Assembly: GCF_000186885.1 (NCBI RefSeq)
Contig: NC_014972.1
Location: forward strand, 3,540,001-3,572,000
From: Desulfobulbus propionicus DSM 2032
Lineage (GTDB): Bacteria; Desulfobacterota; Desulfobulbia; Desulfobulbales; Desulfobulbaceae
DNA: 32,000 nt
Reading direction: 5' to 3'
Positions within the stretch are counted from its first letter, which is position 1; every line of letters starts with the position of its first letter. Under the pieces are notes generated by a model. It did no database searches, was not told where the DNA came from, and was given only the letters and a program-made list of their open reading frames with translations. Below are positions 5,626-30,121 of the stretch, piece after piece. The position numbers and the translations under genes were made by a program.

Positions 5626-7802
<2,177 letters not shown>

Positions 7803-7806
<4 letters not shown>

Positions 7807-9938
7807 GCGATCACCTCCAGGTGTTGTTGCAGTTTGGTGAGCAGTTCCAGGGCATTGACGCGGACGTGCAGGAACTCGTCCACCCCGGCCTCCTTGAAGG
7901 CATCGACAAGGTCTTTGGGAAAACCAGCGAGGATGATCATCATGCCGGGATCAGCGGCCTTGAGCTCCTGGGCTAATGGAGGAACAATCTCCGGGTAAGT
8001 GGCATCGGTGGAGCAGATGACCACCGCCTTGGCTCCGGAGGCCAGCGTCGCCTGGACGGCTTCGTCCACGGTGGCGAACCCGTTGTTGCCGATGGTCTCA
8101 AAGGCACCGACATTGAAAAAGGCGGTGGAGAAATCGGCCCGGGCCTTGTGCTGGGGGATGGGTCCCATGTTGGCAAGGAACAGTTTGGGAGTGGCACCGG
8201 TGCGGGCGGTAAAGGCCTCGGTGGCCCGGCGGATCTTCTCAAAGGGCTCGGCGCCGCGATGGATGTTGAGCGGGGTGATAGCAATCTCCCGGCTATCGCC
8301 CTGCAAGGCTCCGGCCACCATGCCCAGGGTGGCCCCCTGGCGGAAGGCGGCAATGGCCCGGGCCATCAGTTCGCCATCGAGAGTGGAAAGTCGATCGCGC
8401 AACGCGGCCAGCGCCGCGCCGCAGGCCTGGCTGTCAACGGTCCCGGCATGGGCCTTGACCGCCTGGATGCGTTTGTCTTGGAATCCCCGGTGGTCGAAGG
8501 GCTCGGCCTCCAGCCGTTTTTCCGCGAGGTTGGGGTACATGTTGGTGCCGACGAAACGGTCGGTGCGGGTGGCGACGTTCTTGGCCCGCTGGGCGGCGGT
8601 CTGGGCCACGGCTCCCTGGGGCATGCCCTGCTCAAGGGCCGCCAGCATGCCGCCGGCCGCCTCGATATCCTGGAACAGCTTCCAGGCTTTTTCCGCCAAC
8701 TGGGCAGTGATTTTCTCCACATACCAGCAACCGCCGGCCGGATCGACCACCTTGTCGAAATGGCCTTCTTCCTTGAGCACGATGTGGACATTGCGGGCGA
8801 TACGGCGGGAAAACTCGTTGGGGGTGCGGAAGATCTCATCAAAGGGGCTGACGTGCATGCTATCGACACCGCCGGCAATACCGGAGAAGGCCTCGGTGGA
8901 GACGCGCAGCATGTTGACCCAGGGATCGACCTCGGTCTTGTTCCAGGTGGCGGTGCGGGCATGGATAACCATTTTCTGCGCCTCAACATCGCCGTCAAAG
9001 GAGGCGACCACCTGCGACCAGGCCAGGCGTGCGGCGCGGAACTTGGCAATCTCCATGAAGAAGTCATTGCCGATGGCAAACTCAAAACTCATCCGCGCGG
9101 CGATGTCGTTGATGGCCAGTCCACGCTCCTGCAGAGCGCGGATATAGGCCACACCGGTTGCCAGGGCAAAGGCAATGTCCTGGACCGCGTTGCCGCCGCT
9201 GTTGCGGTACCCATCGGTGCCCACAGTGATGGTGCGCAGCTTGGGCGCATGGGCCATGGCCCAGCGGGTGAGTTGTGCCATGCGGTCATAGGCAGTGGCC
9301 AGGGAGGAGCTGAGTGTACCCTCCACCGCCAGTACGCCCAGGGGATCAACCACCAGCGATCCCTGGAGATCGGCCAGCGATTGCCCCTGTTCCTCAACCA
9401 GGGCGGCGATGAGGGCTGCAGGGGCAATCCCCAAAGGTCCACAGGTGAGACGACAGGGTTGGGCGGTCAGGTCGATCCCGGCGAAGGCGGCTTTGGCATC
9501 CGTCAAGCTGGAGAGCGACAACCCCTTTTTGCCGACCAAATCCGCCGGGGCCTGCTCAGGATCCAGGCCACGTAGGCTGGCGCAGTCGAGTACGATATTG
9601 AGGCTGTTCTGGCCACGACTGAGATCGTATTGCGCGGCCTGGTTGAACGCCTCGGCATCGGCCAGGGTGATCTCCTGGGCAATGTTCCAGGCATTGATCC
9701 TGTGGCCTGAAGCGCTCGTGCCGCGCATGTAGGGCGCCTCCCCCGGCAGGCTATCCACCTGGGGCAGGCCGTCAAGATCGTGGACAAAGTACATCGGCTG
9801 GATGTCGATACCTTCGTAACTTTTCTTGACCAGGGTCTTGTCAAAGGGTTTGCCCTTCAACTCCTTTTCCACCGCCGCCAGCCACTCGGCATGGGTATTG
9901 GCCGGAAAATCCTTGAGAATGTCCAATGCTGTTCCCAT
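7803..9938 (-). CDS. mutA: Methylmalonyl-CoA mutase small (beta) subunit (711 aa)
   Basis: The mutase fold is present ([34 protein letters not shown]) but the C-terminal domain lacks a DxHxxG His-ligand motif, as expected for MutA. The start is taken at MGTALDIL (ATG 9936-9938) with AAGGAG 7 nt upstream. The 25 codons upstream in the ORF track overlap the terminator. Confidence 0.85.
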
Positions 9939-9960
9939 TTTTACTCCTTGTTGCTTGGTT

Positions 9961-9993
9961 AACAAAAAACCCCCGGCCCTTTCGGACCAGGGG
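9961..9993 (-). terminator. Intrinsic terminator / expression platform of the proximal cobalamin riboswitch
   Basis: The minus-strand RNA reads CCCCUGGUCC-GAAA-GGGCCGGGGG (10 bp including two U-G pairs that only work on this strand), followed by UUUUUUGUU. The element ends 22 nt before the mutA RBS. Confidence 0.75.
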
Positions 9994-10091
9994 TTCCCCT
10001 GTCTCTGCACCATCGATGACGCGCAGGACTTGCGCCTGCACAGGTGCTGGGATCAACAACGGGAACCACGGCCGCTTACGCTGATCAAAAA

Positions 10092-10248
10092 ATCGGCAGG
10101 TCTTCTGGCTTTCGGATCAGCCTACTCTCCGCGTCTTCCCGATCAAATCGATCAGTGACATGCTACGGATTTCGTCCCCGATTACAGCGGCCGGACCGCA
10201 ACGGACTTGCACCGTTTTCCCTGTTAGGCCATAAAAAATGGCACCGAT
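10092..10248 (-). promoter_or_regulatory. Cobalamin riboswitch aptamer, proximal copy
   Basis: The minus-strand RNA reads AUCGGUGCC...ACAGGGAAAACGGUGCAAGUCCGUUGCGGUCCGGCCGCUGUAAUCGGGGACGAA...CACUGAUCG...GAUCGGGAAGACGCGG...AGCCAGAAGACCUGCCGAU. It carries the conserved core and the B12 box (AGCCAGAAGACCUGCC). It is closed by P1 AUCGGU/GCCGAU. Confidence 0.9.
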
Positions 10249-10330
10249 TTTTTTGTACAAACAATGAGTTAAAACTGTACCGCCTGACTACATCGGACCA
10301 ACATCTCCCCAATATTTTCCACGACAAAAC

Positions 10331-10375: not shown

Positions 10376-10438
10376 GCCCTGGTTTATCCACGTATCGGTG
10401 CCCTCCCTGGTCCAAGGGGAAAGCGCTAGTCATCTTTT

Positions 10439-10587
10439 CAGGCAGGTCTTCTGACTTCCGGATCAACCTACTTGCTGCGCCTTCCCAACCTTTTGGTCAG
10501 TGACATCATGCAGCGTTCGTCCCCGGATACAGCGGCGGGCCCGTCCCCGATTCTCACGGGGTTCCCTTTTCATCCTTGCGGAGCCTG
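10439..10587 (-). promoter_or_regulatory. Cobalamin riboswitch aptamer, distal copy
   Basis: The minus-strand RNA reads CAGGCUCCGCAAGGAUGAAAAGGGAACCCCGUGAGAAUCGGGGACGGGCCCGCCGCUGUAUCCGGGGACGAA...CACUGACC...GGUUGGGAAGGCGC...AGUCAGAAGACCUGCCUG. The conserved core, the B12 box and P1 CAGGC/GCCUG are all present. Confidence 0.9.
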
Positions 10588-10829
10588 AAAATGTATAATC
10601 CTTACAACAGCAAACGCGTTCACCTAAACGGTTTGCATTTCTTTTGTCAAGTGCAAAAAAAGGAGCTGTTTTGTTCAGCATGCCTACGCCAACCCGCGCC
10701 CAAGACAGAAAACCGAGCCTGGCCATGGCTTCTCGCCAGGACAAGGTGCAGAGGAACATACCTGGCAATTATTCTGTGACCGGGCTGTGGAACTCCCAAA
10801 CAAACCATATCAGACAAAGGGGAATACGT

Positions 10830-11186
10830 TCAGCGATTGATGGACATGGTGACGGTAACGATTTGCTGGCCCGTGTCGAACAACCCCAGGACAGTCGAGC
10901 AAGAACATTCATTTGATACCTGAACTGCTTTCGACAGCGTGCTGTAACACTGGGCTAATTGGGGCGTGCGTACCCAGTTTTTTTGACCAAGTCCCTCTTC
11001 CAGGGCCTCATCAACCTCGGCTAAATACTCCTCGGACTCCTTTCGATAGACTGCATACCCCAGGAAATTGGTGCCCTCGGGAAAGCCTAGCGTCTTGCGC
11101 AACTCCTCCACAGAGGGTTTCTCCGCACCGGACTTCTTCACGAGGTCTTTTTTCTTCTTCACGCCGGACAACTTCATTTTTCCCAT
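10830..11186 (-). CDS. Hypothetical protein (118 aa), Lys-rich N-terminus
   Basis: This is the only sizeable ORF in the interval. Its composition is protein-like (MGKMKLSGVKKKKDLVKKSGAEKPSVEELRKTLGFPEG...). I recognise no family and see no clear RBS. Confidence 0.5.
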   Translation of the reverse strand: MGKMKLSGVKKKKDLVKKSGAEKPSVEELRKTLGFPEGTNFLGYAVYRKESEEYLAEVDEALEEGLGQKNWVRTPQLAQCYSTLSKAVQVSNECSCSTVLGLFDTGQQIVTVTMSINR

Positions 11187-11339
11187 GCAATACCACGTAC
11201 TGTTTCATTAAAATTTAACGCCCCAATGCTGGAGAACTCTTGCCGTTCCTCACCTGAACTCGATGGCATGACCAGGATTTGCTGATCGTGGAGGCTCCAG
11301 GAAATTCTCTGCGGAAGGGGCACCGGATCACTGCAATAA

Positions 11340-11606
11340 TCAAGCTTTGGCCCTTGGAGTCACTTTCGCATTACCCCTTGGGGATTTTTTTTCAAATGTA
11401 TAAAGGTACAAAGATTCAACCTTATCTCTCGCCCATTGTGTTTTCCGTAAAAACTTCAGCGATGAATTGATGGATGGATCACTCTTGAAACAATTGATCT
11501 TGATTTTCTGGGCGAGGCCTTCCCAGCCGTAATGTTCGACTAATCGGGTGACCGCCATTTCTAGGGTAATACCGTGTAATGGATTGTTTTCTTGCTTGGT
11601 ACTCAT
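11340..11606 (-). CDS. DUF2132 / VF530-family small helical protein (88 aa)
   Basis: The sequence [62 protein letters not shown] matches my memory of the conserved DUF2132 core ([16 protein letters not shown]...I...CF...[21 protein letters not shown]). Confidence 0.7.
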
Positions 11607-11733
11607 GCTGTGAATTGTATTATCCTTCTAGGGAGGTGTAGAGCGCATAACGGTGAAATAACCTGCCGGCCAAGTTTGCTGCCCACCTATTAAGAACGCG
11701 GCTATTTCCGGTCAGGTTTATTGACTTGATATG

Positions 11734-12117
11734 CTATTTTTCATGCTTTAAAAAAACATCTGTCGTTCTTTTTTTGAATTGATCAGCTATATACTCAGAA
11801 ATTTTCTCCTTTGATTTCAGCTTAGTATACCCTAAGCTGTAGTGACTTATGATTTGTTTAAGTTCATCAACAGTCAATTCATTCAAAAGAGCAATTATTT
11901 CTTCCTTGTTATGGTTTTTCGAGAAAGAAAACAAGTCAGTGTCTTTCATGGCACTTGGCAAACCATGAGGCTTTTCTTTTGCTTGTGGAGGAGCCTCTGC
12001 CTCTACTTCCTTATCCAATATAGACATTAAGATTTCAGGCTTTGATACAATAATTTCACCAAGCGCCTGCAATACTTTTCCAAATATCTTGATGTCGTTC
12101 TTGCTAATATTACTCAT
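11734..12117 (-). CDS. Small protein coupled to the ParA-like ATPase (127 aa); C-terminal HeH/SAP-like motif
   Basis: The ATG at 12115-12117 lies 1 nt after the ParA-like stop (12119-12121). The AGGAGA RBS sits inside the end of the upstream gene. The domain order is an N-terminal helix, an acidic/Pro linker (EAEAPPQAKEKPHG), then LLNELTVDELKQIISHYSLGY, which resembles Rho-N/SAP helix-extended-helix DNA-binding motifs. AT-rich codon usage matches the ParA-like gene. Confidence 0.65.
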   Translation of the reverse strand: MSNISKNDIKIFGKVLQALGEIIVSKPEILMSILDKEVEAEAPPQAKEKPHGLPSAMKDTDLFSFSKNHNKEEIIALLNELTVDELKQIISHYSLGYTKLKSKEKISEYIADQFKKRTTDVFLKHEK

Positions 12118-12118
12118 C

Positions 12119-12967
12119 TCATTCTCCTAACCTTTTAAGAAGCTCGTTTGTAATATTTGTGATTAATTGCTGTGTCTGCCGCCAATCACTTTTCCCTTTT
12201 GCAGTTTGGGAAGTTAAAAATGGCCTAGAGTCTATTGGTGCTTCGGCGACAGAAATTCGCTGAGGAAATTCAGAATCGAAAATATATTCGCTTAGTTCTC
12301 CTGCTCTCAACTCAGTCATTGTTGAACTATGTAAATTTGTACGATAATCGATTTTGGTAAAAATTATTCCACCAAGTTCAATCTCGCATGTTTTTTTCTT
12401 TTTTCTGAAATTTTCTATACGGTTAAGGATTAAGCTTATCCCTATTTTTGAAAGTATATCTGGTACAGTAGGAACAATGTAGTAATCACTTATAGTAATA
12501 CCATTAAGAGTGATAGCACCTAAATTTGGAGGACAATCAATTATTATATAATCGTAATTTGATTTGATGTCTGAAATAGCATTACCAACGACATCGACAT
12601 GACTAACATATGCTTTATTATCCATGTCTGGAATTGCGTCTTGTATTTCTACCAAATAAAGGCTTGAAGGCAACAAATCGAGACCTTCAATGCTGCCAAC
12701 ATTTGTTAATAATGCCTTATTAATGTTAAACCTATCCGTCCCATTTAGCATGTCGTCAAACAAGTGATAAAGAGTTTGGCATTTGTTATGCCGATCTTGC
12801 CATTCTTCTTGGTCAATAACCGAAATAGTTGCGTTTGTTTGCGGGTCTAGATCAATCAGCAGAACTCTATATTCCTTAATCTTAGCAAGAGTTGCGGCAA
12901 TATTTACAGCGGTAGTCGTTTTCCCGACACCACCTTTAAGATTAATAAAACTTACTATTTTCGCCAT
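12119..12967 (-). CDS. ParA/Soj/MinD-family deviant Walker-A ATPase (282 aa)
   Basis: Motifs: KIVSFINLKGGVGKTTTAVNIA (KGGxGKT deviant Walker A with the signature Lys), LLIDLDPQTNAT, and YIIIDCPP (Walker B). AGGAGA lies upstream of ATG 12965-12967. The gene is markedly AT-rich. Confidence 0.9.
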   Translation of the reverse strand: MAKIVSFINLKGGVGKTTTAVNIAATLAKIKEYRVLLIDLDPQTNATISVIDQEEWQDRHNKCQTLYHLFDDMLNGTDRFNINKALLTNVGSIEGLDLLPSSLYLVEIQDAIPDMDNKAYVSHVDVVGNAISDIKSNYDYIIIDCPPNLGAITLNGITISDYYIVPTVPDILSKIGISLILNRIENFRKKKKTCEIELGGIIFTKIDYRTNLHSSTMTELRAGELSEYIFDSEFPQRISVAEAPIDSRPFLTSQTAKGKSDWRQTQQLITNITNELLKRLGE

Positions 12968-13580
12968 AATTGTCTCCTGTGTTTAATTCAAGCATAACAA
13001 GTACGGGTAGGTTGGGGTGAGGAACGAACCCCAACAGAGTCAGCCCACAACACGATATCACTAACAGGACCGCAAGGAACAGCCCTGCCCCAACCGATTA
13101 AACCTCTAATTTTCGGCAAGAGAGCCAACACTACCCAGAATCAACAAGGAGAGCGAGGAGAAACAACACTCAGTCGAAGCAGCAAAAAAACCACCGCAAC
13201 CGTCCGAGCCCGTGAGTCGTGAAGATGCTGGCTCCGCAATTCTCGGCACCAACCATTTTTTCCCTAATATTCGCCAGGTTATTTTCGGTTGACACGGTAT
13301 TCCCTGATGGATACGTTGCCATGCAAGACGGCCGGCAAAGCAGCAAGCCGTTGAAAAAATACTATGATGACCGCCAAAACTCTGCTTGAAGAGGGAGATC
13401 TCTCCCTTGTGGTCGAGATGACACCCAGGTGGCCCGGTATCCCTCGGAACGACCGGCAATGACACAACGAAATTGCGCCGAAGACACTCTCTCCAAGGAT
13501 TGACAACCATCACGCTCCCCTGTGAAGGGAGCCATTACCCAAACTGCAAACGCATTCTGCAAACACAAGAGGACTTGCCC

Positions 13581-20040: not shown

Positions 20041-21048
20041 CTACTCCTCCTTGACGCGGCACTGCGCAAAGCGCACCAGGCCCAGCCGCTGCTGCCGCCG
20101 CTTCCCCAGCATGGCCCCGCCTACCAGCAGCAGGGTACCGCCGAGACCGAGCCCGGCCCAGACCATGTAACCAGCCACATGGCTGGTCCACTCCGGCCGG
20201 TTACGGAAGATGATCATCGGCAGGGTGGCGACATGGAGGGCCTGATGTTCCGGGTCTTCGACCCTGACCACATAGAGCAGCTTATCGTAGTGGAGCTGCT
20301 TAGAGCGGTCGTCAAAGGGAATGACTGTGAAGCGGCCGGAGGCATCGGTACGATAGCTCCGGCGCCAGCCGCTGCCCTCGGCAATCGCCTCGACCATGGC
20401 CCCGGCCAGGGGACGCCCCTGATAGCGTACCTCCATGCCATACTCCTCGTGCGGGCGCTGGAAACCGCCCCCCATGCGGTACATGGCCGGTGAACGGGCT
20501 GAACCGATCTCCAGGGCGATGGCGGGATCCTCGAAGAAGAAGGCCGGGGCCGATCCGGGACGTCCGTCATGCTTGTAATGGCCGACCATCAGCTTGGGAT
20601 AGAGGTGGAGCCGTTGCCGACCACCATTCCCATCAAGCTGAAAATGACCACCCACCAGATAGCGGCCATTGAGGTTGAGGTCCTCAGGCAGGACGATTTC
20701 CCGCATGTCCGGGCTTACCGTTGTTGCCTTGCGGACTCCGTCCGGATCGCAGATGACCACCGTACCCGCCGGCAGCAGGGCCTCGGCCTCCTGCCCCATG
20801 GCGATGAAGGGATCGGCCAATACGCCCCGCACCAGTTCCAGGTGTTTGGGTTTCTCCTGGACACTCTGTCGCTGTTCGCGCTCCTCTCGGATCTGTCGCC
20901 AGTTGAGGTTGTCCATCGCAAAACGGTAGACGTGGAGGCCTTCCTGTTGCAGTTGCCAATAGAGGAGTTTGGGCGCATCTGCGCCAGAGCCAATTTGGGG
21001 AACAAACCCTACTATTATCAAGAGGAAAAAACGTAGCGGCCCCTTCAT
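20041..21048 (-). CDS. Periplasmic protein with signal peptide and C-terminal TM anchor (335 aa); function unknown
   Basis: From ATG 21046-21048 the protein starts with the signal peptide MKGPLRFFLLIIVGFVPQIGSGA. A beta-rich body includes a carboxypeptidase-regulatory/transthyretin-like stretch (GRPLAGAMVEAIAEGSGWRRSYRTDASGRFTV). The C-terminal TM segment is VWAGLGLGGTLLLVGGAML, followed by a basic tail. The ATG overlaps the CobN-like stop (ATGA). Confidence 0.65.
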   Translation of the reverse strand: MKGPLRFFLLIIVGFVPQIGSGADAPKLLYWQLQQEGLHVYRFAMDNLNWRQIREEREQRQSVQEKPKHLELVRGVLADPFIAMGQEAEALLPAGTVVICDPDGVRKATTVSPDMREIVLPEDLNLNGRYLVGGHFQLDGNGGRQRLHLYPKLMVGHYKHDGRPGSAPAFFFEDPAIALEIGSARSPAMYRMGGGFQRPHEEYGMEVRYQGRPLAGAMVEAIAEGSGWRRSYRTDASGRFTVIPFDDRSKQLHYDKLLYVVRVEDPEHQALHVATLPMIIFRNRPEWTSHVAGYMVWAGLGLGGTLLLVGGAMLGKRRQQRLGLVRFAQCRVKEE

Positions 21049-24000
21049 TGTCCCAGCCTCTCCAGACGCCATACCGGTCGCCACTTCTCGACATCAGCAG
21101 CGGTCATGACCTCAACCTTGGAGCCCTGGAACTCCTCGCGTACCTCGCCGATACTTTCCTCCATGTCACCCTCGATTAACAGCGCCGCCTCCTGCACTGC
21201 GGCCAGCCGTTCGGCATCGGCCTGCCACAGGCCCCGGCTCTGGGCTTCAAGCAGACGGCGGGTGATCTCCTCCAGGCCGTAGGGGTTTTCGCGGCGCAGC
21301 CATTCTAGATTGGTCTGATCCTGAATGTAGGTGGTCACCACCCGGTCAAAGACCCAACCGGCCACGGTTTCGGTGGTGGCACTCCATTTGAACAGGGTGT
21401 TGACCCGGCCGGCCACCTCGCCCGCGCCCTGGTAGCCCTCCTGTTGGCGCTGATCGATCCAGTGCGGGTTGAGCAGTTTGGCCATGGTCGTGGCCTCCAG
21501 ATCTTCCTGAAAGTCCCGCACCGAATGATCGGCCTCGCTGTTGTTGTCGGCAAAGTAGATCCGGGCCCGTTTGCCGGTCAAGGCCTTGGCCGCCACCGAC
21601 ATGCCGCCGAGACAACCGGTGTAGCAACTACAGTCGGTGGCATCGTACTCCGGCGAGGCTTGGCGCATATAGCTCACCTCCACATCTTTGAGGCGGGCGG
21701 CAAAGAGGCGATGCGCCGCCACGCCCTGAACACGTTCAAACCCACTGATCCGGTCCGAACCGTAGGCAAAGCCACTCCAGTTGATATAGGTCTCGGCCAA
21801 ATCGGCCTCATCGTTCCAGGCTGAAGCATCCAAAGCCAGACCAACCCCGGTGCCGCTGGCCCCAGGAGCCGAAGAAAAGACCCGGAAGCTGGCCATTCGC
21901 CGCAGTTCTTCGCCGCTGTGCTGCTCACCCAGTTCCCGGCGTAACTCGTCGAGTTGTTCCAGGGTGTGTTTGCGGATGAAATTCTGTTCAATCGGTTCAG
22001 GCAGATCCCCGGCCATGACGGCGGCCTCGTCGAGCAGGTCAGCAAAGTGCGGCACCATGTCGCGGAGGATGGAACTGGTCTGGATGACCACATCCACCCG
22101 CGGCCGGAGCACACCGGGGCCGTCGGTGCGATCCAGTTGCAGTACGTGCAAGGGGATGGGTTCAACTCCGCAGACCCGGCCGTTTGCTTGCCAGAGAGGC
22201 CGCATACCCATCAGGGCCAGGATCTGGCAGAAGACCTCGCCGTCGGACTTGAAGGCATCGATGCTCCACAGGCTGATGCCCACGCTCTCGGGGAAACGCC
22301 CCTCGTCCTCGAGGTATTTGCGCAAAAGATTATCCGAGAGCGCCTGTCCCACCTCCCAGGCGGCCCGCGTGGGGAGGGCGGCAACATCGCTGGTGAAAAA
22401 ATTGCGCCCCGTGGGAAGGGCCTCGGTCTTGCCCAGGGCCAGGGAGCCACAGAGGCCCGGCTCGATGTACTCGCCGTCCAGGGCGCGAAGCAGTTGACCA
22501 ATCTCACGGGTGCAAAGGCCGATGCGGCCCCCCACATCCTGGCACCAATCCAGGAGTCGGCGAAACGGTTGCTGGCCGGGCTCCGCTTTGCAGCCGTCCT
22601 TTGTCGTTGTCAGCAACCATTCGAGCACGGCCACGGCATCGTCAAACGCATTGCCCGAGGACGGCTGATGATGGGCAGCGATCTCCGCCAACAGGGGCAG
22701 GCCGTCCACTGGTTTGCCAAGGATGGTGGCCAACAGAGTGGCAATGCCGTGGCTGTCCGGGGCTGTTCCCAACAGATGTGGGCCGGTGGCAGAAAGGACG
22801 CGTCGGCTCCGGCCAATCCGGCGGGAGAGCAGCTCCATTGCCCGATCAAAATCCTCCTCCCCTTCCAGACCGCCCATTTGCTGCATCAGCGGCTGCATTC
22901 GTGCCCGCAGCACCTGCTGCCGCTGGTTTTCCCCGTGCAGTTTTGCCTTCTGGTACTGGTCAAGCAGGTCTTCCAACTCCAGGGTCATGGCATCCAGCGG
23001 CGCCGGCCGACGAACCGGGCAGAGATGATCGACCATCACCGCCCTGGCCCGCCGCTTGGCCATCAGCCCTTCGCCCGGCACATCCATGATGTAGAGGTAG
23101 ATGTTGGGCAGATCGCCCAGGCTTATCTCCGGAAAACAGGCTGCCGAGAGTCCGACCTGCTTGCCCGGCAAAAATTCGAGCGCCCCATGGGCACCGAAAT
23201 GGAGCACCGCATCCGAGGTGGCACGGATATAGGCGTAGGTGGCCAACCAGTGTGGTGGTGGCGAGAGGTGCGGATCATGGAGGATGCGGCAGACCTCGCC
23301 GTTGCACTTGGCTCCGTAGCAGCCGCGCTTGGGCTGGACAATGATCTGGAGATGACCAAAGCGCAGGCCGGTCACCAACAAAGTGGCCTGGCCGTCTTGC
23401 CGGTACACCATGCCCTCGCCGGGAAAGCGGCCCCAGTCGTTTTCAACCCGCTGCCTGGCCGCCTCGGGCATATCTGTTAGTAATTGCAGGTATTCCTCCG
23501 CATCCACCCGGTGCAGCACCCCACCCTTGGCCACGATCTCGTCGGTGGTGGTCCAACGGAACTCGGAGATGGCCTTGCGTGCGAGCAGCAGATCGAGCAG
23601 TGCTTTGCCGTCCTCCGGGGCATTGCCGGTATCGTAGCCCGCCTCGCGCAGGGCGGTGATCAGGGCCGCCAGACTGGCAAAGGTATCCAGACCGGCGGCC
23701 AGCCCCAGGGTGGCTTCCACGCCCTTGCAGGGATTGTTGTGCAGCACAATGGTCAGCCGCTTTTCATCATTGTCGAGCAGGCGTAGGCGGATCCAGCGAT
23801 GCAGCCGCAGGCAGAGCCGCTCGATCTGTTCCGGCAGAGGGATATATCGTCGCAGCAACAGCCCGGTGACGGGATCGGTTTCCCCTCTGGTGGCAGCCAC
23901 GGCGGTGGGCTCGATCACTCCGGCCATCTCCGGCTGGGTGAGGCTGAAAACCATGGATGCGGCGCCCGCCCCCGCGCCGGTGACATCCTGGCGCCACTGC

Positions 24001-24821
24001 TCGGGCGTTTGCTGGTAGAGACGCAGCAGTTGCACCACCGGCAGATTCAGTTCCTTCAGGATGGTGACATCCTCGGGCTGGGTGAGAAGGCGGCCGGCAA
24101 GAAGGTTGAGCAGCAACTGCGGCGCTGCGCCCCGCAGATACTCCAGCCAGGGATACCGTTGCTCCGGGGGCAGGCTGCTGTCAGTCATGCCCTCGGTGAC
24201 CACACACAGCGGCGTTAGGGCCTGGCATTCCAGGGCCTGGATGAGGGCGTCGATTTCAGCGTGGTTGTTCTCGACAATCTGTCCGTAATAACAGAGCAAC
24301 GCCACCAGGGGCCGCTTGACGGTGTCGCTGATGCGGCTGCACTGCCAGCGCAGATAGTCGCTGGTATCAAAGAAAAACGTATCGTGTTCAGCATGATAGA
24401 TGCCGCAGGTCCGTACCTGCTCCGGCGGATCGATGTGGTGATCCGTTCCCGTGGCGCAAGCGACGAGAAAATGGATCCCATTGACAAAGTTGGCCAGCGA
24501 AACCTGCTCCAGATAGGCGGAAAATCGCACGGCCTGCTTCGCAGTGAAAGTGGTGAAGCCGGGTTGCCGCTGCGGCCCGAGATCGATGCGGTGCGGCAGT
24601 GAGCTTGCCGCCTCCAGCAGCGCCTCATACTGCGGTAAATCGCGAAACAACTGGACAATGCAGAGATCAGCCCAACCGCTTGCCATCAGCTTAATTGCCT
24701 CCCCGGCCTTGACATGCTGGGCATAAAAGCGCAGCTCAACCCCCTCGGCGAGCAACAGGGCGTATGCACGGGACCAAGTCTGGGTCTGGAACATCTGTCC
24801 GTGGACAAAGAGAATCTTCAT
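21045..24821 (-). CDS. CobN/ChlH/BchH-family large chelatase-like protein (1258 aa)
   Basis: Size and collinear blocks are typical of CobN. These include HFGAHGALEFLPGKQ, NIYLYIMDVPGEGLMAKRRARAVMVDHL, ALDGEYIEPGLCGSL.GK.EALPTGRNFF, SLWSIDAFKSDGE and RVDVVIQTSSILRD. No signal peptide is present. The start is taken at MKILFVHG (ATG 24819-24821, AGGAGG upstream), overlapping the upstream stop (ATGA). Confidence 0.9.
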   Translation of the reverse strand: MKILFVHGQMFQTQTWSRAYALLLAEGVELRFYAQHVKAGEAIKLMASGWADLCIVQLFRDLPQYEALLEAASSLPHRIDLGPQRQPGFTTFTAKQAVRFSAYLEQVSLANFVNGIHFLVACATGTDHHIDPPEQVRTCGIYHAEHDTFFFDTSDYLRWQCSRISDTVKRPLVALLCYYGQIVENNHAEIDALIQALECQALTPLCVVTEGMTDSSLPPEQRYPWLEYLRGAAPQLLLNLLAGRLLTQPEDVTILKELNLPVVQLLRLYQQTPEQWRQDVTGAGAGAASMVFSLTQPEMAGVIEPTAVAATRGETDPVTGLLLRRYIPLPEQIERLCLRLHRWIRLRLLDNDEKRLTIVLHNNPCKGVEATLGLAAGLDTFASLAALITALREAGYDTGNAPEDGKALLDLLLARKAISEFRWTTTDEIVAKGGVLHRVDAEEYLQLLTDMPEAARQRVENDWGRFPGEGMVYRQDGQATLLVTGLRFGHLQIIVQPKRGCYGAKCNGEVCRILHDPHLSPPPHWLATYAYIRATSDAVLHFGAHGALEFLPGKQVGLSAACFPEISLGDLPNIYLYIMDVPGEGLMAKRRARAVMVDHLCPVRRPAPLDAMTLELEDLLDQYQKAKLHGENQRQQVLRARMQPLMQQMGGLEGEEDFDRAMELLSRRIGRSRRVLSATGPHLLGTAPDSHGIATLLATILGKPVDGLPLLAEIAAHHQPSSGNAFDDAVAVLEWLLTTTKDGCKAEPGQQPFRRLLDWCQDVGGRIGLCTREIGQLLRALDGEYIEPGLCGSLALGKTEALPTGRNFFTSDVAALPTRAAWEVGQALSDNLLRKYLEDEGRFPESVGISLWSIDAFKSDGEVFCQILALMGMRPLWQANGRVCGVEPIPLHVLQLDRTDGPGVLRPRVDVVIQTSSILRDMVPHFADLLDEAAVMAGDLPEPIEQNFIRKHTLEQLDELRRELGEQHSGEELRRMASFRVFSSAPGASGTGVGLALDASAWNDEADLAETYINWSGFAYGSDRISGFERVQGVAAHRLFAARLKDVEVSYMRQASPEYDATDCSCYTGCLGGMSVAAKALTGKRARIYFADNNSEADHSVRDFQEDLEATTMAKLLNPHWIDQRQQEGYQGAGEVAGRVNTLFKWSATTETVAGWVFDRVVTTYIQDQTNLEWLRRENPYGLEEITRRLLEAQSRGLWQADAERLAAVQEAALLIEGDMEESIGEVREEFQGSKVEVMTAADVEKWRPVWRLERLGQ

Positions 24822-26386
24822 GTCAAGCCTCCTGGTTGAGCAATGGCCCACCGGTCAAGAGGCACCTGGTGATTTGGCGAGTAGTGCCGCAACAGTGTTG
24901 GGTAATCGATTCTGTCCTGGAAGCGCTTCACCCTTGTTTTTCTGGTATCAAGGATGACGCCACCGTTTTCTCCCTGCTGAACAAGGGTTTCCTGCCAGCG
25001 TTGGTGGCCTTCCGGGGGTAACCATATCCCCGCCCCCCCGGCTGAGATCACCACCACCGCCACCTGTTCGACGGTACGGGCTCCACCAAGCAATTGGACC
25101 GCATCGGTGAATGAACGGCTGAAAATAACGACCACATCAGCACCCTCTTTGGCACAGGCCAACACCATTTCCGGGTGATAGAGCGCTCTTTCCGGCAAAA
25201 GATGAATCCTTGCAGGCCCGCAATCGCAACAGGGGAAAGGAATGGGCATTGCAACAGAGTCGCTGAAAACACCTAAAGAGAAAGGCCTCGTGTGACCATC
25301 AAACCAATAAACAGCCTTCACCGCCTCCATTGTTCGCACAAGCAGAATTTTCTGCCCCTGGGATACGCACCAATCATGTAAGTTGGCCATGTCGGCATCA
25401 TCGTAATCGTTGATCGGAAGGAGGTGGAGCGTATCGGCACCCCCCTCCGAGTTCGGGTTCGTGTTTCTGATTGGCGGGATAGCACCTGCCTGTTCAGAAC
25501 AGTGACATCGAACCTCCAACTTCCCAGGCGGAGGCAAATGGAGAAATGTTGTCAAATCATCGATCCCAGTTCTGTTGAGCGTACAGGGATGAACGTGGTC
25601 AGTACTCCTTGAAGTCAGACGCTTGAGGCGATTGCCGGAGAGCAGTTTGTGGTCCGCATTGAGGGGCAAATTAATCCGCAGCAGCTTCGAGGTTCGGGAA
25701 CATTTCTGGAGTTGCACGATTCCTTGTGGACTGACGATGGCCGAAGGGGCGTGCCGGCAATCCATGAGCAGATCCTTGCCGGTGCGGTTGCAGGCAAGGA
25801 CGAACAGCCCATTTTCCAAGGCCCTAGCTCGCCATATTTCCAAGGGATCAAGTCCCAATGGAGGCCAGTTAGCGAGCACGAGTAACAGATTGGCGCCGCG
25901 AAGAGCCGTGACTCTTGCCATGAGACTATGATACGAGTCGGAGCAGATCAGTACCCCCATCCGTCCCCAAGGGGTATCAAATGTATTGTTTTCATAGGGA
26001 TTACCAGGACAGGCCCAACGGAATTCAGCATTCATCTTCCGATAGCGACAAACAATTTCTCCTTCCGCATCAAGGACAAATGCGCTGTTGTAGAGAATGC
26101 CATTTGCCGGGTCTCGCTCTGCCATGCCAATACAAGCGTACATGCCGTAATGACGGCAGATCTTACCGACCTCCGACAGGGTTGGGCCATCAACGGCTTC
26201 GACGTAGGGTGCGACATCCCGCATGTCGGCAAAAGAATATCCGGAGATAACCATTTCAGGGGCCACAACCATCTGTACCCCTTTTTTCCCGGCCACATGG
26301 CAGAGGTCCAGCAACTGCTGCCGGTTGGCCTCGGGCTGTTTGTATTCAACGGATAGATGCATCAAACCGAACTTCAGAAAAGCCAT
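24818..26386 (-). CDS. Carbon-nitrogen hydrolase (nitrilase-superfamily) protein with a second, apparently degenerate CN-hydrolase-like domain (522 aa)
   Basis: The N-terminal domain has an intact Glu-Lys-Cys triad context: VVAPEMVISGY, CRYRKMN and GVLICSDSYH. RARALENGLFVLACNR is also present. The C-terminal ~220 aa repeat the fold pattern (PERALYHPEMVLACAKEGADVVVIFS; GGARTVEQVAVVVISA), but the nucleophile position is unclear by eye. The start is taken at ATG 26384-26386 (GGAG 6 nt upstream). Confidence 0.8.
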   Translation of the reverse strand: MAFLKFGLMHLSVEYKQPEANRQQLLDLCHVAGKKGVQMVVAPEMVISGYSFADMRDVAPYVEAVDGPTLSEVGKICRHYGMYACIGMAERDPANGILYNSAFVLDAEGEIVCRYRKMNAEFRWACPGNPYENNTFDTPWGRMGVLICSDSYHSLMARVTALRGANLLLVLANWPPLGLDPLEIWRARALENGLFVLACNRTGKDLLMDCRHAPSAIVSPQGIVQLQKCSRTSKLLRINLPLNADHKLLSGNRLKRLTSRSTDHVHPCTLNRTGIDDLTTFLHLPPPGKLEVRCHCSEQAGAIPPIRNTNPNSEGGADTLHLLPINDYDDADMANLHDWCVSQGQKILLVRTMEAVKAVYWFDGHTRPFSLGVFSDSVAMPIPFPCCDCGPARIHLLPERALYHPEMVLACAKEGADVVVIFSRSFTDAVQLLGGARTVEQVAVVVISAGGAGIWLPPEGHQRWQETLVQQGENGGVILDTRKTRVKRFQDRIDYPTLLRHYSPNHQVPLDRWAIAQPGGLT

Positions 26387-26438
26387 GATCTGCTCCAATT
26401 ACGTCTGAACCATAGTGCAATGACCTTGATACACCTTT

Positions 26439-27494
26439 CTATTGATCCGCCATGCTGGCAGAAGCCAACGTTTGATACAAGGTGCAGGCCAGCGTGCGAA
26501 CGACTGGGGGATTGTACAACAGACGGCTGGGGCAATCATTGGGGCAACAGCCCGACAATGGGCACTCACCACAGTCCTGGCCGAAGGTTGATAGCTCCGC
26601 GGAAAGGATAACTGAGGAATAGTTCGCTTCCGGATCGATCACAAAGCGTTCGTCGCCCAGGGTCTGGTTGCAAGGGAACCAGCGGCCATCAGGATGAACC
26701 GCCAAGCTACCCCCTTGCGCTGCTTGACAGAAATTGCGGGGAGCCATTCGCCGATCACGGTGAAGCATCCGCCGTACCAGATCCCATTCGCGCAGCCGTA
26801 GTGGTATCTTCCGCTGCGTATTGATGGCTGCCAATGCCTTGGTCAGGGAACAAACGCCACCTTTCAGTGCTTCCGCTGTCGCAGGAATAGGTTTATATTC
26901 CACATTCTCGGCCGAGCCCTTCTTCACCAAGAGGTCAAGGCCGATCCCCCTGGCTTGACGGAAGGCAGAGAGTAACCAGGCCAGGCGGTCCAACTGCCCC
27001 ACGTTCTCACCTGAGACCACGGCAGTGACTCGGAAGGGGATTTGCTCCGACTCTAGCAGCATCAGCCCGCGGAGGGTCTCGGCAGCTTGGCCGCGCAAGG
27101 ATTGTTGTGTCTTGGGTGAACCATCAAGGCTGATGCCCACCTGGAGACCAAAGGTGCGACACAGTTCGATCACCTCGGGCGTCAAACAGGTACCATTACT
27201 TTGCAGTCCCATGGTGTACGGTCGCGACAGGCTCCTTGCCCGTTCACAGGCCTCTTCGATCAGATCCGGCACCAGGCAGGGTTCGCCCCCGGTCAGCTGA
27301 ATGTGCAACGGCCCGGAGCCGGAAGCCGCACGGGCAAAGGCACGCTCAAGAGTGGCACTGCCCATATCCTGCCGTCCCGGAGTATCACCATGATAGCAGT
27401 AGCGGCAACGCAGGTTACAGCGGGTGGTCAGGGCAAGAATCAGATAGTTGATTGATTGGGGGACAGCCGAGTGCGGCAAGGGAGGGGGCTTCAA
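26439..27494 (-). CDS. Radical SAM enzyme with C-terminal SPASM/twitch-type Cys-rich domain (351 aa)
   Basis: Motifs: LALTTRCNLRCRYCYHG (CxxxCxxC) and IQLTGGEPCL (GGE motif). The C-terminal Cys set is CQAAQGGSLAVHPDGRWFPC ... CGECPLSGCCPNDCP. There is no in-frame ATG or GTG before the cluster motif. The start is assigned to TTG 27492-27494, overlapping the cobO stop (TTGA). An alternative TTG lies at 27477-27479. Confidence 0.85.
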   Translation of the reverse strand: MKPPPLPHSAVPQSINYLILALTTRCNLRCRYCYHGDTPGRQDMGSATLERAFARAASGSGPLHIQLTGGEPCLVPDLIEEACERARSLSRPYTMGLQSNGTCLTPEVIELCRTFGLQVGISLDGSPKTQQSLRGQAAETLRGLMLLESEQIPFRVTAVVSGENVGQLDRLAWLLSAFRQARGIGLDLLVKKGSAENVEYKPIPATAEALKGGVCSLTKALAAINTQRKIPLRLREWDLVRRMLHRDRRMAPRNFCQAAQGGSLAVHPDGRWFPCNQTLGDERFVIDPEANYSSVILSAELSTFGQDCGECPLSGCCPNDCPSRLLYNPPVVRTLACTLYQTLASASMADQ

Positions 27495-28012
27495 AACTCG
27501 ATCCCCTTCTGGGCCTTGATGCCGCTCTTCAGGGGATGCTTGACCACCCGCATCTCGGTGACGAGATCAGCCGCCTCAATGAGGGCTTGCGGGGCGTAAC
27601 GACCGGTGATCAACACATGCTGCTCGGCACGGCGCGATGCAAGAAACTCCAGGCAGGGTGCAATCTCCAACATACGGTAATGGAGCAGGTAGGTGAACTC
27701 ATCAAGCACCACCAGATGATACTGGCCGCTGTCGATGGCCTGGCAGGCCAGGGCCCAGCCCTCACGGGCTAGGCGGATGTCCTCCTCCAGGCTCTCCGAT
27801 TTCCAGGTAAACCCACGTCCCATGACGTGCAAATCGATGCAATCATCAAAGCGTTTGACCGCCTCCAACTCGCCGTAGCGCCAACTGCCCTTGATGAACT
27901 GGATGAAACAGACCCGCAGCCCATGGCCCGCTGTCCGCAGGGCCATGCCTAGCGCAGCGGTGGTTTTGCCTTTGCCGTCGCCGGTGTGGATGATCAGTAA
28001 GCCTTTGGTCAT
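27491..28012 (-). CDS. cobO: Cob(I)yrinic acid a,c-diamide / cob(I)alamin adenosyltransferase, CobA/CobO/BtuR type (173 aa)
   Basis: The sequence MTKGLLIIHTGDGKGKTTAALGMALRTAGHGLRVCFIQFIKG...YGE...LVVLDEF...ITGR.AP..LIE.ADLVTEM..VKHP is a full-length match to the CobA/CobO P-loop family. The start is at ATG 28010-28012 with AAGGAA upstream. Confidence 0.9.
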   Translation of the reverse strand: MTKGLLIIHTGDGKGKTTAALGMALRTAGHGLRVCFIQFIKGSWRYGELEAVKRFDDCIDLHVMGRGFTWKSESLEEDIRLAREGWALACQAIDSGQYHLVVLDEFTYLLHYRMLEIAPCLEFLASRRAEQHVLITGRYAPQALIEAADLVTEMRVVKHPLKSGIKAQKGIEF

Positions 28013-28068
28013 TGGTGATTCCTTATTCCTGGAACGAATCGGTCTTTGCAAAGCGGCCATGCCGCCCT

Positions 28069-28117: not shown

Positions 28118-30121
28118 TCAAAAATGGAATTTCACACCGCCGTACACGGAGAATCCCTCCATGCAGTAGCCGGATTCCGTGTATTCCTTATCCAACAGGT
28201 TATCAATGCGGGCAAAGAGATCCATATTCTCCAAGGCCTTATACGTACCGGACAGATTCACAGTGGTGACCCCGTCTTCCTCCCAGCGGATACTGTTCCA
28301 GCTCGGATCATTGAGCGGGACAATCTGCGCATCCCGCCAATTGATATCCAAGGCCATGGTCAGCTTGTCCATGGAATAGAGGGTGACGATGAAGTCAATC
28401 TTGTTTCTCGGCAGGTAGGTATTGCGGGTCCAATCGGCATTCTCATCAGCCTTGGAACGGGAGTCGATGTAGGTGTAGGCCAGATCAAATCGAACCATCT
28501 TCCAGGGCTGCACGCGAATCGAGGTCTCAATACCTGAGCTTTCACCCTCCTTGGCGTTGTCGTAACGCATGGCCGTATTATCGAAAATGATCATGTCGTC
28601 GAACTGGGTTTGAAAATAGGTAACCCCTACATTGACCTTGCCCCCTGCCAGCTCCTGGTTGACACCGATCTCGTAACTGGTGCTTTCTTCCGGTTGCAGG
28701 TCCGGGTTACCGATGGTGATCAGGTTGCCGTTATAGAGGTAGCCACCATAAATCTCGTACAATCCCGGAGTGCGATAGCCGGTGCCCACGTGGGCATGGA
28801 GTTTGGTTCCGGTGTTTTTAAACAGATACGCCGCCGAGGTTTCCCAGACAGCCTCACCATCAAATTCATCGTGGTCGTTGTATCGGCCTCCCAGGTTGAT
28901 AAACAGGCTGCGATCAAGCAGGGCAAACTGGGCCTGGCTAAAGACGTCTTTATTCCCCCACGACTCATCAAAACTGACCGGGGTATAATCGCCGGCATAT
29001 TTGTTCTTGGGTTCCTGACCGTCGTAGACGGATTTCTCGTAATCAGCCCCGAGATTGAGTGTCAGCCACTGGTTGAGATGCAGGTTGTGCTGCATTTCCA
29101 CATAACTGGTTTCGCCATCGTAGTTGGATTGGTCTCCCGGAGTGGTGGACCAAAAATAGTGGCGTTCGGTGGCGCCTTGCGAGCCCTTGAGCGAGAAATC
29201 CCACAGCGGCGAGATCGTCTGGTTCCAGTTGAGTCCCACCTGATAGAGTTGCCCTTCGCGATGCTGGTCCGCATAGGCCTGGTTCTTGATCAGACCGCCA
29301 TCGGCGCCCAGACTCGGAGAACTGCCCATGGCCAGATCGGTATCCGAAAAAATGCCGCTGAACTCGACGGTAGTCCTCTCTGTGGGTTTTACGCCTGCCC
29401 CAAAGGTCGCGCCGGTGTTATCGTACCAGTAGCCGTTGGGGCCACCGTTGTTGGCGCCATCGGTGGTGATGTACATGGGGTTGAAATCGACGTAATAGTT
29501 GTCCTTGCCGTAGGCGGCGCGGGCGTTGGTAACATAGGTGCCGTTGGGGCCGAACTCGTTGCGCCATTCCGCCGAAGGCCCGGATTGCCATCTTTTGGGA
29601 ATGATGTTGACCACCCCGCCCATGGCCTGGGAACCGTAGAGGGTACTGTTGGTCCCCTTCAGCACCTCCACCCGATCGAGATTGGAACCGCTGTACATAT
29701 CTTCGATGAAGTATTGCAGGGTGCTCTGGGTGTCGGCGGCATCGCGCAACGGCATGCCGTTGTACTGATATTGAGTGTACTGCGAGCCCGTGCCACGGAT
29801 GCTGATATTGGACCACTGCCCCATACCCCCGAGCCTGCGAAGATAAACGCCGGGCTCGTTGTCGAGCAATTCGGGGAGGAAATACTGTTGTTGCTCCTCC
29901 CGATCCTCGCTGTCGATAATATTGATGCTTTTGGTGGTTTCTTTGAGCAGGGTTTCCGTCCGCGAGGCGGTTACCACGATATCCTCGGCCTTCTGGATGG
30001 TTTGCTGTTCTTCGGAGGTTACGGTTTCCTGGTCATTGGCCAGCGCCGGAACGGCCATCCACGGCATCAGAGCCAGGGCAAAGAGTAACTGGCTCGGTTG
30101 CAGTCTTATTCTTGATTGCAT
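28118..30121 (-). CDS. TonB-dependent outer-membrane receptor (667 aa), BtuB-sized
   Basis: A signal peptide ends in PALA. A TonB-box-like EDIVVTASR is present. Plug motifs include ISIRGTGSQYTQYQYNGMPL and RVEVLKGTNSTLYGSQAMGGVVNII. The C-terminal barrel ends GGVKFHF. AAGGAG lies upstream of ATG 30119-30121. Confidence 0.9.
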   Translation of the reverse strand: MQSRIRLQPSQLLFALALMPWMAVPALANDQETVTSEEQQTIQKAEDIVVTASRTETLLKETTKSINIIDSEDREEQQQYFLPELLDNEPGVYLRRLGGMGQWSNISIRGTGSQYTQYQYNGMPLRDAADTQSTLQYFIEDMYSGSNLDRVEVLKGTNSTLYGSQAMGGVVNIIPKRWQSGPSAEWRNEFGPNGTYVTNARAAYGKDNYYVDFNPMYITTDGANNGGPNGYWYDNTGATFGAGVKPTERTTVEFSGIFSDTDLAMGSSPSLGADGGLIKNQAYADQHREGQLYQVGLNWNQTISPLWDFSLKGSQGATERHYFWSTTPGDQSNYDGETSYVEMQHNLHLNQWLTLNLGADYEKSVYDGQEPKNKYAGDYTPVSFDESWGNKDVFSQAQFALLDRSLFINLGGRYNDHDEFDGEAVWETSAAYLFKNTGTKLHAHVGTGYRTPGLYEIYGGYLYNGNLITIGNPDLQPEESTSYEIGVNQELAGGKVNVGVTYFQTQFDDMIIFDNTAMRYDNAKEGESSGIETSIRVQPWKMVRFDLAYTYIDSRSKADENADWTRNTYLPRNKIDFIVTLYSMDKLTMALDINWRDAQIVPLNDPSWNSIRWEEDGVTTVNLSGTYKALENMDLFARIDNLLDKEYTESGYCMEGFSVYGGVKFHF

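Follow-up and report, generated by a model that had tools for sequence, protein, structure and literature searches.

Desulfobulbus propionicus DSM 2032 carries, between cobO and a cobN-like gene, one gene for a radical S-adenosylmethionine (SAM) enzyme of the SPASM type and one for a two-domain amidase of the nitrilase (CN-hydrolase) superfamily. They were analysed in a window of 32,000 nucleotides, by which we mean the whole stretch examined (NC_014972.1, positions 3,540,001 to 3,572,000 of the forward strand). From the comparison of sequences and gene neighbourhoods, it is well supported that both genes belong to the predicted B12 regulon in dozens of species of sulfate reducers. The explanation that we prefer, which is plausible though still short of probable, is that both proteins act as cytoplasmic accessory corrinoid-tailoring enzymes of an uptake and salvage cassette that is predicted to be repressed by B12, with a chemistry that we infer from their relatives. 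The salvage of corrinoids is generally regarded as a largely mapped pathway, with uptake, adenosylation, cleavage by CbiZ or CbiR and rebuilding of the nucleotide loop as its steps. Here, two enzyme families without an assigned step stand under B12 riboswitches in dozens of anaerobes and beside a CobN-type chelatase, and the cassette points to a salvage step that is not yet described. The preliminary description of the window, which was made from its letters alone, had located both genes between cobO and the cobN-like gene and had stated that neither family has an assigned step in cobalamin metabolism. Coordinates, Pfam matches and gene junctions agree with the former statement. Regarding the latter, we found no paper in the literature that links a nitrilase-type amidase or such a radical SAM enzyme to corrinoids or that gives either of them a cobalamin step, and the database entries for the two proteins carry generic names only.

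All gene coordinates are given in window numbering and refer to the minus strand. In this direction, two genes for TonB-dependent receptors are followed by cobO, encoding the ATP:corrinoid adenosyltransferase (27491-28060; PF02572, CobA_CobO_BtuR, 224 bits; TIGR00708, 214 bits and over its cut-off), the radical SAM gene (26439-27494, 351 amino acids), the amidase gene (24818-26386, 522 amino acids) and the gene for the CobN-family large chelatase subunit (21045-24821; PF02514, CobN-Mg_chel, 1005 bits). A cobalamin riboswitch (RF00174, 97 bits) is situated on the minus strand directly upstream of the first receptor gene, at the window-equivalent position 32377-32580 (L028:1377-1580). Directly upstream of this riboswitch lies cbiZ, which is the last gene of another riboswitch-headed operon with the order two unknown genes, BtuF, BtuC, BtuD, CobN, TonB receptor, ChlD, ChlI, ABC-2 pump and CbiZ. 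Genome-wide, we found two cbiZ genes (202 and 163 bits), three genes of the CobN family, three cbiK genes and cbiD; hence, the organism is an anaerobic de novo producer whose salvage island is enlarged. The corrinoid genes cluster at genome positions 3483045-3695917, and the three CobN-family genes as well as both cbiZ genes lie in approximately 40 kb around the window. Moreover, a paralogue of the amidase, which is 51% identical and has an intact catalytic triad, is encoded 1.8 Mb away (genome 1761127-1763215; L027:9128-11216) directly behind a second cobO. There is no radical SAM gene at that site, and no riboswitch was detected within 20 kb around this second cobO-amidase unit.

The assignment to corrinoid metabolism is carried by the comparison with other genomes. 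The phylum was sampled evenly with 401 genomes, for which the counts are given without a statistical test because the genomes are interrelated. Of these, 110 contained the CobN family, 24 the radical SAM gene and 17 the amidase. CobN was present in all 24 genomes with the radical SAM gene and in all 17 with the amidase, and the radical SAM gene occurred in 16 of the 17 amidase genomes, where approximately one would be expected by chance. Furthermore, a species scan with one genome per species yielded 79 loci, 78 of them with the amidase, in which a riboswitch, CbiZ, CobN, CobO or ChlI/D was counted as corrinoid marker if it lay no more than 10 kb from the amidase. Such a marker was found in 60 of the 78 amidase loci, and in 38 of the 45 loci having at least 5 kb on each flank. 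Within the same distance of 10 kb, CbiZ was encountered in 30 of the 78 species and CobO in 24. An ABC-2 pump was nearby in 24 as well, and the radical SAM gene was the immediate neighbour of the amidase in 34 of the 78 loci. An upstream riboswitch-like match that had the same orientation as the amidase, and was separated from it by co-directional known genes at most, was detected in 33 of the 78 species; this count was obtained with our own nhmmer profile, and individual riboswitches were checked by Rfam (72-123 bits). In six genomes (L035, L038, L039, L041, L042 and L045), the amidase gene directly follows a riboswitch confirmed by Rfam, and in three loci (L004, L036 and L040) such a riboswitch heads an operon that includes the amidase. 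The two-gene unit of cobO and amidase recurs in L089, L091, L092, L094 and L095. Thus, the link of both genes to corrinoid metabolism that had been proposed at the outset is supported in dozens of species, and far more strongly than the letters of the window alone could show, by the riboswitch and by the linkage to CobN, ChlI/D, CbiZ, CobO and BtuFCD.

The two genes differ in the partners that they keep. Searches by tblastn with the proteins of this cluster as probes revealed approximately 20 loci in which the radical SAM gene directly adjoins CobN, usually in the orders BtuFCD, radical SAM, CobN or ChlD, ChlI, radical SAM, CobN. The CobN proteins of genomes without the radical SAM gene belong mostly to a distant subfamily with 34-38% identity. 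The radical SAM gene prefers CobN, whereas the amidase prefers CobO, CbiZ, ABC-2 and the riboswitch. Amidase and radical SAM enzyme are fellow passengers of one cassette and not an obligate pair. With regard to CobN itself, two types of context were noticed, one subfamily having a radical SAM neighbour and the distant subfamily having the order BtuCD, ABC-2, CobN, ChlI and ChlD but no radical SAM gene (L161-L178 versus L071-L081). In the isolated case of L003, a MoaE gene is found beside the amidase, and the radical SAM gene stays beside CobN on another contig. Nearly all of the retrieved loci with the amidase family come from Thermodesulfobacteriota. Homologues were also seen in bins labelled Prosthecochloris (Chlorobiota), Armatimonadota, Verrucomicrobiota and Accumulibacter (L137, L156, L158, L121 and L124), which reflects gene transfer or mis-binning; in the three of them with enough flanking DNA (L137, L156 and L121) the amidase is again located inside B12 uptake cassettes.

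The amidase consists of an active-site half and a degenerate half. Domain 1 (approximately residues 1-262; 25601-26386) is the only part that is matched by CN_hydrolase (PF00795), which scored 130.7 bits against a gathering score of 23.2 on residues 21-237 of the 526-residue open reading frame. Its motifs PEMV, YRKMN and LICSD comprise P43-E44, K117 and C148, with positions counted on the 522-residue protein. E44 and K117 do not vary among 36 full-length homologues, and the second Glu, E121, is nearly invariant; position 148 is occupied by Cys in 33 of them and by Gly in the other 3. The triad reads Glu-Lys-Cys in 62 of the 63 species copies, which bears out the earlier statement that it is intact in domain 1, and by these residues the domain is predicted to be catalytically competent with an intact thiol-amidase site. 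Gly in place of the nucleophilic Cys was seen in L093 (the second copy of Desulfobulbus elongatus) and in two further database sequences, and homologues with this exchange also include the proteins P0049, P0062 and P0071. The L093 copy sits directly behind a riboswitch-like element. It may represent a non-catalytic derivative that only binds its ligand.

An AlphaFold model of the full amidase, which was built from the alignment, reached a predicted local distance difference test score (pLDDT) of 90.8 and a predicted template modelling score (pTM) of 0.91. In Foldseek searches, domain 1 with its four-layer alpha-beta-beta-alpha fold was assigned with probability 1.00 to Nit2, PH0642 and carbamoylases. 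The top matches were the omega-amidase Nit2 (2w1v), the glutaramide-bound PH0642 (6ypa) and N-carbamoylputrescine amidase, and formamidase and carbamoylases were found as well. Nit2 and PH0642 (6ypa, 1j31) share with domain 1 the fold (E 1e-20 to 1e-19; template modelling (TM) score by target 0.78-0.85) as well as the triad of Glu, Lys and Cys plus the second Glu. However, the identity is just 24-25%, the amidase has a fused dead second domain instead of forming a homodimer of the Nit2/PH0642 type, and it is predicted to be regulated by B12. In the NCBIfam collection the amidase missed all equivalog cut-offs, the best score being that of archaeal nitrilase (76 bits versus 500), followed by formamidase (61 versus 406), AguB (52 versus 410), deaminated-glutathione amidase (46 versus 355) and aliphatic amidase (43 versus 427). 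The CbiZ family PF01955 gave no match in the amidase by Pfam.

Domain 2 (approximately residues 283-505; 24872-25540) had been described as a seemingly degenerate second copy, which applies to its fold and not to its sequence. Modelled alone, it reached a pLDDT of 86, and among the matches listed by Foldseek only nitrilase-superfamily chains were present (best E 9e-10, TM approximately 0.6). In the predicted structures, its strands and helices follow one another as they do in domain 1. At the sequence level, hhalign aligned it to domain 1 with a probability of 16% over 21 columns that were out of register, its profile returned only chance matches with PDB sequences (E of 0.3 or above), and Pfam gave no match. 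When the catalytic positions were transferred via the secondary-structure register, the counterparts of Glu and Lys were variable and that of Cys was the conserved Pro398. Since the positions of the triad are lost, domain 2 is best regarded from the models as a dead nitrilase domain, i.e. a pseudo-enzyme whose kinship is visible from structure alone. It has kept invariant motifs of its own, namely HPE, RTxE and a KRFQDxID tail, which argues that it is under selection. Domain 2 probably takes, within the same chain, the place that a second subunit has in the usual nitrilase dimer.

In the accessory-tailoring explanation that we prefer, the two enzymes would serve a cassette of one or more TonB receptors, BtuFCD, CobO, CbiZ, an ABC-2 pump and a chelatase-type CobN subunit with ChlI/ChlD. 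A corrinoid would be imported, reduced and adenosylated by CobO before the amidase acts on it. The amidase would then hydrolyse at least one primary carboxamide side chain of the corrinoid with release of ammonia, and this deamidation would bring the corrinoid back to a pattern of amides that the CobN-type chelatase and the rebuilding enzymes accept. Beside CobN, the radical SAM enzyme would act on the same tetrapyrrole with a radical reaction that depends on SAM. The side chains of corrins are acetamides and propionamides, and Nit2, PH0642, the carbamoylases and formamidase all cleave terminal C(O)NH2 groups. A side-chain deamidase is favoured because the relatives of domain 1 cleave terminal carboxamide or carbamoyl groups and the corrin bears such amides; by this analogy, the amidase probably removes primary side-chain amides. 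That the amidase is linked to CobO suggests that its substrate is adenosylated, like that of CbiZ.

The main rival to a deamidase is a CbiZ-like cleavage of the linker with another substrate range. The amidase would then be a second cobamide or cobinamide amidohydrolase, cutting the secondary amide between the f-propionate and aminopropanol on substrates that the resident CbiZ refuses, for example those with other lower ligands or other linkers or non-adenosylated forms. CbiZ (PF01955) resembles the amidase in several ways: it hydrolyses an amide in the salvage of corrinoids, is found in the same riboswitch operons, is functionally tied to adenosylation and may have more than one copy in a genome. 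Adenosylation comes before the action of CbiZ. The cobO-amidase units fit such an adenosylation-first order, and the amidase indeed occurs in operons with CobO and CbiZ. In addition, several CbiZ paralogues in one salvage operon have been reported (Rupakula et al., 2015; PMC4285132), which makes parallel specificities plausible. On the other hand, the fold and family of CbiZ are unrelated to those of the amidase, which has no similarity to CbiZ and matches PF00795 alone, and CbiZ cuts a secondary amide, whereas the closest structural relatives of the amidase hydrolyse primary amides or carbamoyl groups. The preliminary description had considered the amidase as a possible replacement for a missing CbiZ. 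This idea has to be abandoned, because the genome has two cbiZ genes, one of them directly upstream, and the amidase accompanies CbiZ within 10 kb in 30 of the 78 loci rather than replacing it. Altogether, we regard a second amidohydrolase as unlikely, though it deserves to be kept in mind.

The radical SAM enzyme is less easily placed. PF04055 (Radical_SAM) scored 57.3 bits against a threshold of 29.5 on the protein. The cluster cysteines C26, C30 and C33 (CX3CX2C) are invariant among 33 homologues, as are the SPASM cysteines C256, C275, C308, C311, C317, C321 and C337 together with G270, so the signature CX9-15GX4C, CX2CX5CX3C, C is complete; the SPASM model of Pfam gave no match at E 0.01. 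No NCBIfam subfamily cut-off was reached, and the best score was that of PapB (NF047865, 90.5 bits versus 340). A type like NirJ, AhbC or AhbD, which had been offered as an argument for a tetrapyrrole substrate, is not borne out by the scores of 52.5 versus 515 for NirJ (TIGR04051), 49.2 versus 500 for AhbD (TIGR04545) and 44 versus 650 for AhbC (TIGR04546), and PapB, CteB and anSME scored somewhat higher. These tetrapyrrole enzymes share with our protein the superfamily, the SPASM architecture and the tetrapyrrole context; however, the matches are limited to the core domain, and it is not a member of their families. Nor does it belong to the well-characterised clades outside tetrapyrrole metabolism, for membership in PapB, CteB or anSME was not reached (anSME, TIGR03942, 53.8 bits versus 349). 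In a search of the family profile against solved structures, CteB was nearest (98 bits), and anSME was aligned across the full length (84 bits). By sequence it is best described as an orphan SPASM enzyme with a slight lean to the protein and peptide modifiers.

That lean supports the alternative that the enzyme is a protein or peptide maturase like anSME or PapB, which would modify a protein of the cassette, for example CobN or a binding protein, and act independently of the amidase. With anSME (4k36-4k39), CteB (5wgg) and PapB it shares the CX3CX2C core and the seven-cysteine SPASM region, and like the compact anSME it is a short enzyme without an N-terminal extension; moreover, its gene is packed tightly against cobN. 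Against such a function stand the scores, every one of which is far under the family cut-off, and the lack of a substrate peptide nearby. The constant neighbourhood of the CobN chelatase sets the enzyme apart from anSME, CteB and PapB. No conserved free-standing small open reading frame was found near the radical SAM gene in 27 loci, where the short conserved frames were situated inside large genes or in riboswitch DNA. Furthermore, the cluster motif begins at residue 26, which leaves no space for an N-terminal peptide-recognition domain. A maturation system for ribosomally synthesised and post-translationally modified peptides was rejected on the same two grounds, i.e. no adjacent precursor gene in the 27 loci and no recognition domain. 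Hence, an independent maturase seems improbable to us. The radical SAM enzyme may perform a radical step on the tetrapyrrole at CobN, or it may mature a protein of the cassette.

Several points weigh against the accessory-tailoring explanation. To our knowledge, there is no established physiological need for the deamidation of corrinoids during B12 starvation, and the salvage pathways known to us add amides rather than remove them. As far as can be judged from sequence, the radical SAM enzyme is closer to peptide and protein modifiers than to tetrapyrrole modifiers. The replacement of the nucleophilic Cys by Gly in some amidase copies implies that catalysis is not required everywhere. Finally, in a minority of genomes (L001/L032, L005/L109 and L132) no corrinoid gene is present within 10 kb of the pair.

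The CobN neighbour allows a comparison with two systems from the literature. The corrinoid 'operon-2' of Dehalobacter restrictus PER-K23, which is 346-fold up on corrinoid starvation (Rupakula et al., 2015; PMC4285132), resembles the cassette in being riboswitch-headed and in encoding BtuFCD-like transporters, two CbiZ, CobN and subunits of the Mg-chelatase type. However, its published description, on which our comparison rests, mentions neither a radical SAM enzyme nor a nitrilase-type amidase. The second system is HmuS, a haem de-chelatase of the CobN family, which demonstrates that the family is able to run in the demetalating direction (PMC12583661). Like the CobN considered here, HmuS is encoded in anaerobes together with a TonB receptor in an operon for uptake, whereas its substrate is haem, no B12 riboswitch is involved and no amidase or radical SAM partner has been described. 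According to the same paper, most CobN-family clusters cannot yet be annotated (PMC12583661).

Taken together, amidase, radical SAM enzyme and CobN/ChlI/ChlD could constitute an undescribed route for the re-tailoring of imported corrinoids, consisting of deamidation, a radical step and the ATP-driven insertion or removal of metal, although we consider this complete route doubtful. One possible purpose of such a route would be to make metal-free or otherwise unusable corrinoids usable to anaerobes in cobalt-poor sulfidic habitats. The amidase, as a soluble and oxygen-tolerant type of enzyme with a clear catalytic Cys, offers an easy biochemical entry to the cassette. Its substrate would reveal the fate of scavenged B12-like molecules in these bacteria, with a bearing on the exchange of B12 in sediments, guts and dehalogenating consortia.

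The opposite direction, in which the cassette is catabolic, has also to be considered. The amidase would strip the amides, the radical SAM enzyme would remove the upper ligand or open the corrin, and CobN with ChlI/D would de-chelate the product, as HmuS does with haem, so that cobalt is harvested from unusable corrinoids. The de-chelatase activity of a CobN-family protein on haem (PMC12583661) speaks in its favour. Deamidation to the a,c-diamide would restore a ligand of the CobN type, and the ABC-2 exporter of the cassette could expel the metal-free product. Yet the cassette includes CobO, which is anabolic. Moreover, remodelling by CbiZ costs far less than a de novo synthesis that starts with the recovered cobalt, and we know of no precedent for the demetalation of a corrin. 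A catabolic cassette therefore appears quite improbable to us.

It is very improbable that the two genes provide a B12-independent substitute for a B12-dependent reaction, which would explain their predicted repression by B12 without any action on corrinoids. Radical SAM enzymes often parallel adenosylcobalamin enzymes, which would suit this idea. B12-independent isozymes under riboswitch control are also well known, such as nrdDG in delta-proteobacteria (PMC545781). However, the genes do not form operons of their own but are usually found in the middle of operons among transporter, CbiZ, CobO and chelatase genes. We give next to no credence to an accidental position of a housekeeping omega-amidase and an unrelated radical SAM gene, which the comparative data already contradict: a few genomes have the pair, or the amidase alone, amid unrelated genes and Nit2 is the top structural match, but the family occurs in only 17 of the 401 genomes, each with CobN, and 60 of the 78 loci have corrinoid markers, with the riboswitch directly before the gene in six genomes. 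The cbiJ step is missing from delta-proteobacteria (PMC545781), and a role of the genes in filling this gap was rejected, because with 24 and 17 of 401 genomes they are too rare.

The start sites of the genes in the cluster were also inspected. For both the amidase and the radical SAM protein, hundreds of full-length homologues with 35-86% identity exist; therefore, neither is a chance open reading frame. The TTG start of the radical SAM gene (27494-27492), which shares the letters TTGA with the stop of cobO, is plausible as originally proposed, since AAGGGG is located 8 nt upstream, close relatives have equally long N-termini, and a public protein record begins at the same codon. The raw open reading frames of the next two genes are longer than the genes themselves (24818-26398 with 526 amino acids for the CN-hydrolase and 21045-24851 for the CobN-like protein). 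For the amidase, the ATG at 26386 is preceded by GGAG 6 nt upstream, and the TTG at 26398, four codons earlier, was rejected as start, because the database copy has 522 amino acids. The ATG of the CobN-like gene at 24821 overlaps the amidase stop as ATGA with AGGAGG before it, and by this overlap its start is predicted to be coupled to the amidase stop.

Regarding the flanks of the cluster, both receptors carry Plug and TonB_dep_Rec domains; the second one occupies 28118-30121, and the first one extends from 30157 past the window end, so that its start lies beyond base 32000. Downstream of the CobN-family gene follow genes for a membrane-anchored protein, a NapH-like polyferredoxin, a HGD-D/BadF-type reductase pair and a DsbD-like protein. 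The host genome consists of one contig of 3.85 Mb, and for both proteins the closest relatives carry the name Desulfobulbus.

Elsewhere in the window, tandem cobalamin riboswitches were found on the minus strand at 10078-10263 and 10424-10603 (123 and 117 bits), directly upstream of the methylmalonyl-CoA mutase genes (7803-10013 and 5626-7806) and meaB. A B12 riboswitch ahead of a B12-dependent enzyme is unusual. The same arrangement of two riboswitches and the mutase is present in L082-L084 and L099. The stretch at 11000-13000, which includes a gene for a ParA/MinD-type ATPase (12119-12967), is low in GC (0.35-0.44 versus approximately 0.6 elsewhere) and may be foreign DNA. At 52-2284, a gene for SSB is located beside a weak Rad52/22-like gene, which suggests a remnant of a prophage or mobile element.

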